From Candidatus Freyarchaeum deiterrae (GTDB taxonomy: Archaea; Asgardarchaeota; Jordiarchaeia; Jordiarchaeales; Jordiarchaeaceae), in NCBI GenBank assembly GCA_037305845.1, contig CP147778.1, positions 2,304,001-2,368,000 on the forward strand: a stretch of DNA of 64,000 nt, written 5' to 3'. Positions 28,385 to 34,361 of this stretch are shown one piece after another. The translations under genes and the position numbers were made by a program. The notes beneath the pieces were generated by a model, which saw only the letters and a program-made list of their open reading frames with translations, was not told the DNA's origin and made no database searches. Within the stretch, counting starts at the first letter, position 1. Each line of letters opens with the position of its first letter.

Positions 28385-28554
28385 AAATTTTTTTCATATA
28401 AAAGTGAACTAGTAAACTACTCTTTTTTTCAATAAAAGATATAAGAATAAATCCGTTATGTAAGTCCAAAATAAACAAAATTATATTTATATAAACCCCA
28501 AAACCCAATGATAACATGTCAATAAAAAATAAATAAGGGTTTTACCTAAATCGG

Positions 28555-29658
28555 TTGAGTCAAGAAAAGTGTTTGCTTGGAGGCGCTTCGATGCCCACCG
28601 TTTGGGTTGATTACGTTGCTCCCAAAGACGTTGTTTTCTTCATGAACATGGTTGAGAAGCTGAAAAACAGGGGAGACACTGTTATCGCAACAACCAGAAA
28701 ATTCAGAGAAGTAAACGAGTTAATGAGATTAAAAAATGTTGAAGCAAAGATTTTGGGTAGCTATGGTGGGGGAACCCTGAAAGGCAAGTTGGTGGAGGGC
28801 GCAAAAAGAATAGTTAAATTGGCAGATTATGTTTCAAGATTTGATGTAGATGTTATGGTTTCCTATTGCTCACCCGAAGCTGCCCGTGTAGCCTTCGGAT
28901 TGCAGATTCCAATTATAAATATTTATGACGCTCCTCATGCGGTTAAGCAAATACTTTTGTTATCACAGCTTGTGGATTTTAACCTTTCACCAAAATGTAT
29001 CCCTGAACAGGAATGGCTTAAACTTGGTTTCAAACCAGAGCAGTTGATATTTTACGATGCTATAGATCCAGTTGCCTGGCTCAAAAACTTTTCACCCGAT
29101 AAAACCATTATACAAAATTTAGGATTAAATCCCGACAAAAAAATCGTTGTGGTCAGAACAGAAGAAGCTTTCGCTTCATACCTACTCGGTAAAACCTCGG
29201 ACGACAATTCCTATATAGCTCCATTAATTAAAAGCGCTTTAGATTTTGATGAAGAGCTTCAAATCGTTGTGCTCTGTAGATATGGGCGTCAAAAACCGAG
29301 TTTAGGTAAACTCTTTAAGAAAATTATTATTGCTGAACACGTAATAGACACTGCGAGTCTACTTTCTAATAGCGTTCTTTTTATGGGGGGAGGCGGAACA
29401 ATGACCTGTGAGGCTGCTCTTTTGGGAGTACCTTCTATCTCGTTTTTCCCTGGAAAGCTCTACTATGAAGAGCCGCTCATGAAAGAAAAACTGCTCTGTC
29501 ATCCAAAAACGGTAAACGAAGCCCAAGGTTTGATTAAGGAAATACTGAGTCAGCCGAAAAAATATTTCGATGAATTAAAGAAAAGAGCCAGACTTTTATT
29601 GGATAGTATGGAGAATCCAACAGACAAAATAATTGAAACTATTGACAAATTTGGGTAA
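28555..29658 (+). CDS. DUF354 glycosyltransferase-like protein (start possibly at the MPTVW Met)
   Basis: SPEAARVAFGL, R.EE..ASY and GGGTMTCEAALLG. Confidence 0.85.
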   Translation: MSQEKCLLGGASMPTVWVDYVAPKDVVFFMNMVEKLKNRGDTVIATTRKFREVNELMRLKNVEAKILGSYGGGTLKGKLVEGAKRIVKLADYVSRFDVDVMVSYCSPEAARVAFGLQIPIINIYDAPHAVKQILLLSQLVDFNLSPKCIPEQEWLKLGFKPEQLIFYDAIDPVAWLKNFSPDKTIIQNLGLNPDKKIVVVRTEEAFASYLLGKTSDDNSYIAPLIKSALDFDEELQIVVLCRYGRQKPSLGKLFKKIIIAEHVIDTASLLSNSVLFMGGGGTMTCEAALLGVPSISFFPGKLYYEEPLMKEKLLCHPKTVNEAQGLIKEILSQPKKYFDELKKRARLLLDSMENPTDKIIETIDKFG

Positions 29659-29678
29659 CCAGTAAGCATTAATTTTCC

Positions 29679-29990
29679 TTAGCTTAATTTCTTCTTTTTC
29701 ATATCTCTCCAGAATATCTTTTTCGATAGTTCATACCATGTGTACAACCATACTAACACCAGAGATCCTGAAGAAACTACTTGAAATATCTGTCTTATTG
29801 AACTCCAAAATCCTAGCTGGCCTTGGTCAAACTGATAGGGTGTAGTAAGAAAGTTAATAATTGTCCAGGATATCTGTTGAGGTGGATACCAAGGAATAAT
29901 TATCAATCCAACGAATACAAATACGCCGATTATTGTTATCCATACAAACAGAATCAACAATAGAAGGGGTATGTATCTTCTTAACTCCAA
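29679..29990 (-). CDS. Small two-TM membrane protein
   Basis: Two hydrophobic segments; tight spacing behind aglH. Confidence 0.7.
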   Translation of the reverse strand: MELRRYIPLLLLILFVWITIIGVFVFVGLIIIPWYPPQQISWTIINFLTTPYQFDQGQLGFWSSIRQIFQVVSSGSLVLVWLYTWYELSKKIFWRDMKKKKLS

Positions 29991-29996
29991 TTTTCA

Positions 29997-31031
29997 TCAC
30001 CAAACTATTAGCACCGCGGTTAAAATAGCTAATATGGCACTTAGAGCGCTTAGTAAGTAAAGCCCCTTAACGATCTCCGGTTCAGTTAGAGGCCCTCTTG
30101 CAAGCATCATGCGCGCCAAGGGTATTGGAGCCTTCGAGCTTTCATTGGCTGCGATTCTGCCATCCTTGAGGAGTATTGTTGCTGGCTCTTTAACTAGTCT
30201 GTACTCTTGAAATTTACGCATACTTGTCAACATGTAGAAAGAATTCATTATGAAAGGTATCAAGGCAATGATGGTGACCAGCTCCAACTGTCCCACAACA
30301 GCGAGGGCACCAATAGCGGCGCCCACGGTTAAAGAACCTACATCGCCAGAAAAAGTCTTCGCCGGATATTTGTTGAACCTATAATAGGCTATCATTACTC
30401 CCAGCATTACTACCGATATTATCACGCCGGTCTTAGAATCTAGAAGAACTGAGCAACAAAGCATGGCGCCGAACGTTATTATAGTTGTACCGGGCATAGC
30501 TCCATTCATAATATCCAACATGTTTACAGTATTCGAACAGACCGCCACATTCACCGGAACATAAATTGGATAGAGATAACTTAATCTGGTACTTCCAATA
30601 AAGGGAAAACGAGGGGAGTAAACCAGGATAGGAAAGAAAAAGTTGATTATCAGCAGGGGAGCGGCTGCAATTACTGTAAGCAGGGTTTTTGTATAGGCGC
30701 CCAATCTTTTTAAATCATCGACCATCCCCACCGCACCAGTGGCAGCTACGGTTAATAAAAATGCCAGTAGCCTCAATCTAATTATATTATCCTCAAACGG
30801 AATGATCATTATCATTATGCCCAAGGTTACGCTTATTAAAATCGCGATTCCACCCATCTCTGGAATCTTGGGTTTATTAAGTTTATGTACATCACTCCCT
30901 ACAATTTTTAACGATTTCATCTTTCGCATAACGCGAGGAACCAAAAAATTACAAATCAAAAGAGAGGCGAAGAACCCAATCACTAAAAATAGTATTTCAA
31001 TGGGTTCAAGGTTTATCATTTTTACTGTCAC
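29997..31031 (-). CDS. aglH: UDP-GlcNAc:dolichyl-phosphate GlcNAc-1-P transferase (AglH/Alg7, MraY superfamily)
   Basis: G.DVHK...PEMGG, GMVDD, N.VNMLD..NG and F.GDVG; many TM helices. Confidence 0.88.
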   Translation of the reverse strand: MTVKMINLEPIEILFLVIGFFASLLICNFLVPRVMRKMKSLKIVGSDVHKLNKPKIPEMGGIAILISVTLGIMIMIIPFEDNIIRLRLLAFLLTVAATGAVGMVDDLKRLGAYTKTLLTVIAAAPLLIINFFFPILVYSPRFPFIGSTRLSYLYPIYVPVNVAVCSNTVNMLDIMNGAMPGTTIITFGAMLCCSVLLDSKTGVIISVVMLGVMIAYYRFNKYPAKTFSGDVGSLTVGAAIGALAVVGQLELVTIIALIPFIMNSFYMLTSMRKFQEYRLVKEPATILLKDGRIAANESSKAPIPLARMMLARGPLTEPEIVKGLYLLSALSAILAILTAVLIVW

Positions 31032-31195
31032 CCTCTTAAATAATCCAAGATAAGGCTTTTATACCAAATCAAACTATTCATCAGTAAAAATTGCCAAAAC
31101 ATTTATGCGAATTAGGTAATAACCTTTATGTCCTTAAGATAATCCATATATATTCTTCAGTATAATTATAATCAGCCTTTGCCGAAGGTGATTAC

Positions 31196-32941
31196 TTGCG
31201 AAAAAGCACAGGTGCGATGCTGCTGATACTATTAATCATTACAATGGGTTTAACCGCAATCATAGCACTAAACAACAACAACAATATCGGTTATACGCCT
31301 TTCATTCAAACCAATAACAAAGTAATACCCAAAAATATTACAAGCGCGTCTACCAACAATCTAACCAACAGTCTGGTACTAAGAAATATTTCAATAAATA
31401 ACTTCGGGATAGCAACCATTACCGACGTTATCACAGTAAGGAACGACGGTATAGATACTGCAACATTCGCAGATGTCTTCTATACTGCGGATGTATGGTC
31501 TAAACTCCTTACATCTAGCGCTCAGTTCGGAAATATTCAACTGAGCACCCAACAAATTTCTTCGGGCGGAATTAACGGTACCAGAATACTGTTCAGTAAC
31601 TCAGTAGCCCCCGGGGAAAACTACACATTCGCATTAGTGCAATATTTTGATGGAACACTTACGAGTGTTGCTATTCCATCTTTTGGAAATGTATCAGAAT
31701 TCGATTTTCCAGCTAGCCCCTATTCACCTTACACGATAGAAGTATGTAATGTTTCGATTGCATTACCTAAAGGTGCACAAACCCCCTTCTCACTTACAGC
31801 CAATTTTACTAACCTTACACCTTTCAATACCAACAACACACTATCAACAGAATTCGTGTTCACAGATGGAAGCTCCATCATATCACTTAAAACGGTTTAC
31901 AGACAGATAACAGTGGATCCTTGGCGTGGAATAACTGTAACAGAAACCAACTTCATAGAAAACGCGGCTCCCGCGAATCTTACCAAAATCTATTTCAAAG
32001 CCGCTTCCGGCACAGTACAGTTAAAAGCTTATGATTCCGCAGGATCAATACCAGCTTGGATTAGTGGTGACAGTGTCATAATAACCCCCCACTACCCAGT
32101 TCCGCCAAATGGAACTTACGCCTATTATGTGATCTACTCCATTCCAATTGACTTTTCACAAGTGGGCAGCTCCGGTTCATACCTGTTTGCGTTCAACATT
32201 CTGCCCAGTTACGGAGCATTAATTGACAACTTTTACGTATCGCTAACATTCAACAACTTCGCGAGCATATCATCACAGAGCCCCCCGACAATCTCTATAT
32301 CCTCCTCAATTGCTGAGAACACTTATCTTTACTCTTTTAACAATGTCCTTCCCACCCAAAACGTGGAAGCCTACGCTACATACAGTATTGGTTTGCCAAC
32401 AACATACCTCCGTCCACTCGTCTTCATGTTAATCTTCGGATCTATAGCAATAGCCTATGTAGTTATCAGATCACGCCGCGTAGAAGAAGCTGCGCCCATC
32501 ATAGTAAGCCCTGCAGAAGTTGTGGCTCCCGTTCTTCGCGAATTCTGCGACCTGTACGAAGAAAAGAACTCACTAATACTCGAAATGGACAGTTTACGCG
32601 AGGATGTTCTTAGAAAAAAGATTAGAAAAATAGAATACAATCAGAGAGCCAGAAACTCTGAAAAAGAGATATCCAGACTTAGCATACAGATAGACCAGAA
32701 AAAAACAGAAGTGCTAAAATCAAACAATAAATTCGAGTCGGATTTCAGTTTCTTGGAAATAAACGAGGCTGACCGAGACCATGCCAAAATAACGCTCCAG
32801 CACCTTAAACGAAGATACTTTATGAAACGCTTATCCAAAGAAACATACATCAAACTCAGCGAGGAACAAGAAAAGAAACTCAACAAGGCAGAATCCAACA
32901 TAGACAAGAAAATTCAAGACCTACGCAGAGAAGCAAGCTAA
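31196..32941 (+). CDS. Ribophorin I (OST1)-like protein
   Basis: Signal anchor, beta-rich luminal domain (SPY motif, R.ITVDPW.GITVTE), one TM helix and a helical cytosolic tail. Confidence 0.75.
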   Translation: MRKSTGAMLLILLIITMGLTAIIALNNNNNIGYTPFIQTNNKVIPKNITSASTNNLTNSLVLRNISINNFGIATITDVITVRNDGIDTATFADVFYTADVWSKLLTSSAQFGNIQLSTQQISSGGINGTRILFSNSVAPGENYTFALVQYFDGTLTSVAIPSFGNVSEFDFPASPYSPYTIEVCNVSIALPKGAQTPFSLTANFTNLTPFNTNNTLSTEFVFTDGSSIISLKTVYRQITVDPWRGITVTETNFIENAAPANLTKIYFKAASGTVQLKAYDSAGSIPAWISGDSVIITPHYPVPPNGTYAYYVIYSIPIDFSQVGSSGSYLFAFNILPSYGALIDNFYVSLTFNNFASISSQSPPTISISSSIAENTYLYSFNNVLPTQNVEAYATYSIGLPTTYLRPLVFMLIFGSIAIAYVVIRSRRVEEAAPIIVSPAEVVAPVLREFCDLYEEKNSLILEMDSLREDVLRKKIRKIEYNQRARNSEKEISRLSIQIDQKKTEVLKSNNKFESDFSFLEINEADRDHAKITLQHLKRRYFMKRLSKETYIKLSEEQEKKLNKAESNIDKKIQDLRREAS

Positions 32942-33183: not shown

Positions 33184-33289
33184 TGGTAGCGCCGCGCAGA
33201 TTCGAATTCCGCGGCCACACAAAAGCTGTAGCTACTCTGCGGTCTCGGGGTCCAAAGCCCCATATGCTTGTCCTCTACACCACGGCGCT
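33184..33289 (-). tRNA. tRNA-Gln(UUG) with encoded CCA and a 30-nt intron at position 53/54 (intron 33207-33236)
   Basis: Acceptor AGCGCCG/CGGCGCT (A1-U72), anticodon arm TGGGG-CTTTGGA-CCCCG, and T-arm CGCAG/TTCGAAT/CTGCG after intron removal. Confidence 0.93.
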
Positions 33290-33319
33290 CCGAGAACTGG
33301 ATAAGAAATCTTACAGTTA

Positions 33320-33334
33320 TTTTATATATTTTTC
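33320..33334 (-). promoter_or_regulatory. BRE/TATA promoter of tRNA-Gln
   Basis: GAAAAAATATATAAA on the minus strand about 30 nt upstream of the tRNA 5' end. Confidence 0.6.
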
Positions 33335-33399
33335 TACTTTTTAACTGTTATCATTAGGATGCCAACATTATTGATTAGAGTCCAGGATACCGTTTGAAC

Positions 33400-33613
33400 C
33401 TAATCTTCTTCTATGGAGATAGCTCCCGCCTCACACTGTATCTCACATGCCCTGCAAACCAAGCACTCTTCTTCGGCCGCCGCCTTTGCTAAACCATCCT
33501 TAAGCTTGTAAACCGCAGCGGGGCAAATTTTTACGCGGTCAGACTATGTCTTGTACCTTTACGCATACCCCGCAGCCAGTGCATTTGTTCTTATCCACTC
33601 TAATTTTCACCAT
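33400..33613 (-). CDS. 2x[4Fe-4S] ferredoxin, 61 aa, split by a 28-nt BHB intron: join(33559-33613, 33400-33530)
   Basis: Spliced product MVKIRVDKNKCTGCGVCVKICPAAVYKLKDGLAKAAAEEECLVCRACEIQCEAGAISIEED; RBS GAGGTG upstream. Confidence 0.85.
33531..33558 (-). other. Candidate BHB mRNA intron AGGTACAAGACATAGTCTGACCGCGTAA
   Basis: GCGU/GCGU central helix with two AAA bulges, an intron hairpin and an 8-bp exon helix; removal restores the frame. Confidence 0.8.
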
Positions 33614-33749
33614 TTTCTGGGCACCTCATTAATTTGTTGGCTCAACAAGTGGAGACTATAAGTGATTCTTTTGTACTAATTATTTATTTTCTTAATAGGG
33701 CTGAAATTCTCATAAAAAAGAGAATTAGGGCATTCAACTATTTTTTTTC

Positions 33750-34361
33750 CTACTTTAAGTTGAAAGGCTTTCCCTCGTTTAATACCTTTTTGGGAATTTT
33801 ATCCTTCCACTTCTCCAGAAAGGCTTTGTCATCCTTAGCCTCACGAAGATCGTCGGGTAACATGTGGGGAATTGTTTCTATTACTGGGTACCATCTGCCG
33901 CACTTGTCACAGAGTATTACTCCCTCCTCAACTTCGGCTCTGTACAACAGCCAGTTTAACAGGTGTATATCCAAGTTGAGTTCAGGAGTGAGACTAGAAG
34001 GGAGCTTACCCTTTTTTATTTCCAGAGCGCTTTTTATCAACTGTACTGACGGGGCATCGCTTAAATCCTCAATTGTCATTAATATGTCCAATTTTTCGGA
34101 GAATGTTTCCAGATATTCTTGGAGGGGGACTGGTTCCCTAGTCATTTCATCCTCAATCTTAACTGTGGACCCTGATTGATCTGTTTTAATCCTGTCCTTC
34201 AACTCCTTTTTTAGGAAGTTCGAGTCTTTCTTTTTGAGATCCTCATTGACTTTCTGGAAGTCCTCCTTTTTTGTTTCCCATGTGAAAATTTTGAGCTTTA
34301 GAGGATAATTTTTACAACCACTTATCGGGCAAGCTAAGATATCTAACAACCAAAGCTTCAT
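33750..34361 (-). CDS. Trm112-family methyltransferase activator with a long insertion
   Basis: LLDILACP...EVEEGVILCDKCGRWYPVIETIPHMLPD. Confidence 0.85.
   Translation of the reverse strand: MKLWLLDILACPISGCKNYPLKLKIFTWETKKEDFQKVNEDLKKKDSNFLKKELKDRIKTDQSGSTVKIEDEMTREPVPLQEYLETFSEKLDILMTIEDLSDAPSVQLIKSALEIKKGKLPSSLTPELNLDIHLLNWLLYRAEVEEGVILCDKCGRWYPVIETIPHMLPDDLREAKDDKAFLEKWKDKIPKKVLNEGKPFNLK

Follow-up and report, generated by a model that had tools for sequence, protein, structure and literature searches.

A 28-nt insert in a small ferredoxin gene of Candidatus Freyarchaeum deiterrae is, with high probability, a spliced mRNA intron of the BHB class, a reading that we draw from its fold, its conservation, its absence from outgroups and the enzyme genes of the genome. 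As to its origin, we favour, with restrained confidence, a gain independent of the intron in the neighbouring tRNA-Gln(UUG) gene, the resemblance between the two being driven by the splice motif. The locus lies in the window, i.e. the whole stretch of 64,000 nucleotides that was analysed, which belongs to a genome consisting of a single contig of 3,576,204 bases. On the minus strand, a Trm112-like gene is followed by the small ferredoxin gene (33613-33400), 110 nt with a TATA-like box, and tRNA-Gln(UUG). The first-pass annotation had described two same-strand introns of 30 and 28 nt about 300 bp apart, and this holds, as they occupy positions 33236-33207 and 33558-33531 on the minus strand and are separated by 294 nt. 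The features of the locus, in window coordinates, are:

33622-33627, minus strand: Shine-Dalgarno-like GAGGTG ahead of the ferredoxin start, found by sequence inspection
33559-33613, minus strand: ferredoxin exon 1, 55 nt, from the start codon through CxxCxxC plus the first base of codon 19, set by gapless alignment to intron-free Atabeyarchaeia orthologues
33531-33558, minus strand: putative BHB mRNA intron, 28 nt, frame-shifting, with stops in both relevant frames, assigned by fold and frame
33400-33530, minus strand: ferredoxin exon 2, carrying the CP that completes the first motif, then the second 4Fe-4S motif (Pfam Fer4_9 at E 0.0009, short of the curated cut-off)
33561-33564, minus strand: exon strand of the central helix, GCGU, 4 bp, within the first repeat copy (33564-33558)
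33533-33536, minus strand: intron strand of the central helix, GCGU here and GCGC in two relatives, within the second repeat copy (33536-33530)
33518-33573, minus strand: 8-bp exon-exon helix clamping the intron (33573-33566 with 33525-33518), fully paired in 4/4 distinct sequences
33321-33328, minus strand: TATA-like box upstream of tRNA-Gln, found by sequence inspection
33184-33289, minus strand: tRNA-Gln(UUG) gene, CCA encoded (ARAGORN after intron removal; PMC11291895 Supplementary Data 4, tRNA 26)
33207-33236, minus strand: tRNA-Gln(UUG) BHB intron, 30 nt, position 53/54 (central helix 33242-33239 with 33212-33209)

Beside these features, an extended Trm112-like gene (33750-34361, minus strand) lies upstream of the ferredoxin gene, and a Ribophorin-I-like gene (31196-32941, plus strand) is convergent on tRNA-Gln, its Pfam match being faint or weak in relatives and lacking here; a ribophorin-like neighbour is also present at Atabeyarchaeia-type loci, but on the opposite side. 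Elsewhere, a CRISPR-like array with a 37-nt repeat and unique spacers was seen at about 28500-32500 in genome coordinates.

The insert interrupts the CxxCxxCxxxCP motif. Removal of 33558-33531 yields a 61-aa ferredoxin with two cluster motifs, and the unspliced frame runs into a stop at codon 25. Both the tRNA-Gln and the ferredoxin inserts present a 4-bp central helix between two 3-nt bulges, and the product, namely the tRNA cloverleaf or the 61-aa ferredoxin, is regained when each bulge is cut between its second and third base; this also holds in four relatives. Inserts of 28-29 nt are found at the same site in four genomes of the genus and in one metagenome contig; two further NCBI contigs repeat one such insert allele. 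The interior of the insert has diverged, but 97.5% of pair cells stay paired, compared with 30-50% in slid controls, and one compensatory pair change was observed; with four distinct sequences only, the covariation shuffle control (126/500) was not significant. The exon-exon helix reaches -16.6 versus -6.9 and -8.6 in Atabeyarchaeia-type orthologues, and synonymous change showed no clear difference between the exon stem (4/10 codons) and the remainder (18/31). In two Atabeyarchaeia-type genomes, the ferredoxin orthologues, which adjoin the same tRNA, have no interruption and can be aligned gaplessly, and more distant homologues are likewise uninterrupted; in the second family of the order, no ferredoxin orthologue was found with this query. 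The simplest history would be a gain of the intron in the Freyarchaeum lineage.

The genome also encodes the enzymes that such an intron would call for. EndA is present as two subunits. In one of them, inspection shows the catalytic Tyr, His and Lys, and this same subunit has a lysine that aligns to K44 of Aeropyrum pernix EndA in the broad-specificity loop, the residue that confers broad specificity on that enzyme (PMC5829648). The rtcB gene is present and is itself intron-interrupted. It is very improbable that the insert stays unspliced, with the gene being a pseudogene or read by ribosomal frameshifting, in which case the intron comparison would be moot. Such a reading could point to the protein collection, in which searches found no spliced ferredoxin product, and to the sole database match, an NCBI hypothetical protein at the ferredoxin locus of a relative. 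This 61-aa protein, however, continues across the intron in the frame of exon 2 (L301:1501-1686, L302:1501-1686), so that we regard the ferredoxin as mis-annotated there. Against an unspliced insert, the exons are 71-83% identical across genomes with every cysteine kept, the insert lengths of 28 and 29 nt would need different frameshifts, stops occur in both frames in this genome, and read-through would add about 10 residues within the cluster motif. The insert has every testable feature of the BHB class bar an observed transcript, and is very probably an mRNA intron.

The tRNA-Gln intron was already known, as it has been published at the same coordinates: the Gln(TTG) tRNA is tabulated at 2337289-2337184 with an intron at 2337236-2337207, corresponding to window positions 33236-33207 (PMC11291895). 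ARAGORN and Rfam gave no match in the unspliced window, and ARAGORN calls tRNA-Gln(ttg) once the 30-nt intron is taken out. The TATA-like box suggests that tRNA-Gln has its own promoter; a sigma-70 promoter scan is unsuited to archaea. In other lineages, position 53/54 of tRNA-Gln is also interrupted, by introns that range from 11 to 31 nt and differ in sequence; in the second family of the order, the site is occupied, but the introns are shorter and look unrelated, and the Atabeyarchaeia-type tRNA-Gln genes have no intron there.

The ferredoxin intron belongs to a set of 27 candidate mRNA introns that we catalogued in this genome by combining a motif-independent search for frame-breaking junctions with a motif-first scan and further candidates, each checked for geometry and frame; an earlier BHB scan with a coding-score filter had been over-strict and missed the ferredoxin. 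A mostly assembled genome of the order's other family (G006) served as the reference for a search of frame-breaking junctions that made no use of the motif. Here, a stable BHB was found at 8 of 29 strong junctions versus 0.2 expected from displaced positions, and in-frame insertions relative to the same genome showed no BHB excess. Homology spans the junction for about 19 of the 27 introns, and for those of hypD, queE, pcm, endoQ and a radical SAM gene the support is one-sided or at motif level. Exon-exon helices of -8 kcal/mol or lower occur at 12 of the 27 sites versus a background of 4-6%, and at 7/19 sites versus 1/19 matching intron-free G006 sites (p 0.018); since detection may favour well-folded cases, we take helix strength as supportive and not as independent proof. 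The rtcB, ychF and fbp introns have central cores with three of four pairs. Introns were also seen within catalytic or cofactor motifs (rtcB, the ychF P-loop, hdrC, mvhD, hypD, nadE, moaE, porA, ahcY), an observation open to detection bias.

We compared these 27 mRNA introns with 47 published tRNA introns. The intron starts (AGUA and AGGUA) and the identity of 9 of 11 terminal bases are as the first-pass annotation gave them, and one of its two proposals was that a tRNA-type intron had moved into the mRNA by reverse splicing. Given the ferredoxin exon core and the pairing and bulge frequencies of the genome, a match of at least 9/11 has a P of about 0.004, in an 11-base window that was picked after the match was seen, and of about 0.02 when referred to the best of the 47 tRNA introns. 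Among 1269 mRNA-tRNA pairs, two reach this level, the other being ahcY and tRNA-Asp with 10/11 at a distance of about 450 kb; the same terminal count in relatives is 9, 6 and 8. In global alignment, the pair scores 7.5, joint best (rank 2) of 1008 mRNA-tRNA pairs, and in relatives it scores 8, -0.5, 3 and 0. True copies within the genome score higher (Arg isoacceptors 16, Gly 14.5-18, two Asp introns 14), and orthologues of the tRNA-Gln and ferredoxin introns score 10-18. Identity of the pair is 61% here and 52-68% across relatives, below the 80% mark for transposed tRNA introns. At the family level, for which orthologues of 22 intron families (three of them mRNA) were available, the orthologue-averaged pair ranks 4-6 of 231, and the two families are narrowly reciprocal best matches (0.593 versus 0.587 and 0.529).

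Much of this likeness disappears when the motif positions are removed, the pair dropping to rank 28-30 among the 231 family pairs and to rank 117 among the 1008 single ones (top 12-13%). The first-pass annotation saw something real, in that the resemblance lies in the upper tail, but outside the motif the pair stands out far less. Terminal identity climbs with core identity across all pairs, and the introns of hypD and tRNA-Ile2, both distant, resemble the ferredoxin family to about the same degree. Positions -16 to -7 average 4.7-5.9 matches of 10 versus 2.5 ± 1.1 (top 1-3.5%, with positions chosen post hoc), and the apical stems of both introns share a register found in 5 of 64 introns. The alba and mvhD introns are not among the top-scoring pairs. 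The likeness mostly sits in splice-motif positions, and the shape of the motif explains most of the signal, in agreement with the caveat of shared structural constraint raised at first pass. The resemblance of the two introns stems mainly from exon cores that call for a near-identical partner (GCG), from the prevalence of AA bulges in this genome and from a G-C closing pair, with a few further matches due to chance.

A local hop, in which the tRNA-Gln 53/54 intron was copied into the ferredoxin gene 300 nt upstream in a Freyarchaeum ancestor, whether through mis-ligated RNA that was then reverse-transcribed or through an event in DNA, is in our view unlikely, if still worth pursuing. The copy would initially have formed three of four central helix pairs, as known from rtcB, ychF and fbp, and one G-to-pyrimidine change would then have completed the pairing. 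In line with this, the alignment has flush ends, a single loop gap and paired positions 7, 9 and 10 in common besides its 52-68% identity and its high rank in this genome, and the base opposite the exon U is G and not A in all six genomes, a choice made in 23% of such pairs genome-wide. The relative ages may also fit, as the 53/54 tRNA intron position, occupied in the second family too, may be the older one and the ferredoxin intron is genus-confined in our sample. On the other hand, the free positions are unexceptional, the score falls, in two of four lineages, to between -0.5 and 3, not one of the remaining 26 mRNA introns has a clear tRNA donor, 1.5% of Asgard tRNA introns belong to cross-type families with at least 80% identity (10.64898/2026.10.13.758758), and tRNA-Gln appears to have a promoter of its own. 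There are four mRNA-tRNA intron pairs with members no more than 1 kb apart, and eight when the limit is set at 5 kb, which gives a 0.5-2.6% tail event a chance of roughly 2-20% of occurring once, so that it is not rare. Similarity showed no general rise with proximity, the exceptions being the tRNA-Asp pair and the ferredoxin/tRNA-Gln pair. A search for related copies elsewhere, as suggested at first pass, turned up no duplicate of either intron in the genome when up to 6 mismatches were allowed, and three matches at 7-8 look like chance.

We retain the local hop among the explanations because two tRNA-Asp introns lying 7 nt apart (G000:C1:1427046-1427109) resemble a local copy. They are related in a register shifted by 1 nt, the first is absent in one relative (G002), and with a family score of 10.2 they form the best candidate here for local copying of an intron to a new site. 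Intron copying does occur in this lineage, as the Arg and Asp tRNA introns indicate: of four genomes, this one alone has the tRNA-Arg(UCG) intron, which shares 86% identity with its counterpart at the equivalent position of Arg(CCG). The Arg(UCG) intron and the first tRNA-Ile(GAU) intron (G000:C1:1513222-1513243 and 1729037-1729064) are absent in G001, G002 and G003, and for the latter no donor was identifiable. Should the hop be true, it would offer a traceable example of a protein gene being colonised by a tRNA intron and would point to tRNA introns as a source of Asgard mRNA introns; on present data, we treat transposition as a lead and not as a result.

A further proposal from the first pass, that the intron arose by duplication of a self-pairing site, finds little backing. 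A 7-nt direct repeat, GCGTAAA, is indeed present at 33564-33558 and 33536-33530, but the hairpin that it flanks is one of 21 nt and not of 21 bp. Had a target of 5-7 nt been duplicated around an inserted hairpin, or had replication slipped there, both strands of the central helix would have arisen together and the G opposite U would be expected, and comparable repeats occur in rps26e (6 nt), ahcY (7 nt) and tRNA-Leu(UAG) (6 nt). Nevertheless, the repeat is perfect only in this genome and matches at 5-6 of 7 positions in the other five (6/7 in G003-G005) because Glu is encoded where this genome has Lys. A self-complementary core alone produces a 4-nt repeat, which AA bulges lengthen, and the terminal repeat beyond this pairing-forced length is neither conserved nor in excess over the 27 mRNA introns. 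Repeated cores were found in 3 of these 27 versus 1.2 expected for random cores (P 0.12) or 2.2 for real cores (P 0.36), leaving 24 introns without such a repeat, and the intron body is unlike either exon beyond about 7 nt, with no donor in the genome at up to 6 mismatches. We consider an origin by duplication improbable.

Independent gain with motif-driven likeness is the account that we lean towards; our weighing of the origins is a judgement from the tests and not a computed posterior. The ferredoxin intron would have entered the Freyarchaeum lineage as a short hairpin insert, unconnected with the tRNA-Gln intron, and is proposed to have been kept because it formed a BHB. EndA would cut both 3-nt bulges between their second and third bases, and RtcB would join the exons, as established for tRNA and as we infer for the ferredoxin mRNA in vivo from positions, conservation, fold, outgroup absence and enzyme genes. 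The ferredoxin would then, with high likelihood, be made solely from spliced mRNA.

A tRNA-type intron in an archaeal protein gene is almost undocumented, and for protein-catalysed mRNA splicing within archaeal coding regions cbf5 was the only documented case found in our literature search. The presence of no fewer than 27 candidate mRNA introns, including one in the organism's own RNA ligase gene, suggests that such splicing is routine in a group near eukaryotes; gene callers mis-annotate intron-split genes of this kind. The intron pair and the catalogue together provide a direct test set for the arrival of BHB introns, with Arg, Gly and Asp as controls for copying within the genome. In Thermoproteales, tRNA introns were proposed to have moved to BHB-capable sites, and 28% of introns fall into cross-tRNA families with at least 80% identity, according to later accounts of Fujishima 2010 (PMC4090602, 10.64898/2026.10.13.758758). 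Unlike these, the ferredoxin/tRNA-Gln pair reaches 52-68% identity and would involve an mRNA as recipient; no published case of this kind was found. The non-canonical tRNA introns of Freyarchaeia and Atabeyarchaeia (PMC11291895; 10.64898/2026.10.13.758758) match the mRNA introns in size and design. The cbf5 pre-mRNA carries a BHB intron in Desulfurococcales and Sulfolobales, with splicing shown by experiment (Yokobori 2009, PMC2738675). This genome has a cbf5 intron of its own, a 32-nt BHB intron (G000:C1:1483446-1483415, minus strand) that splits the catalytic Asp codon after its first base, and its position is that of crenarchaeal cbf5 (PMC2738675), a match that may reflect either shared ancestry or repeated gain. 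The ferredoxin intron differs from cbf5 in its host gene, in occurring in an Asgard archaeon as one of at least 27 candidate genes, and in that its splicing is here a prediction from sequence. Like cbf5, it is a short BHB intron in the coding region, placed within a functional motif, with conserved ends and a variable interior, in a host with a two-subunit EndA.
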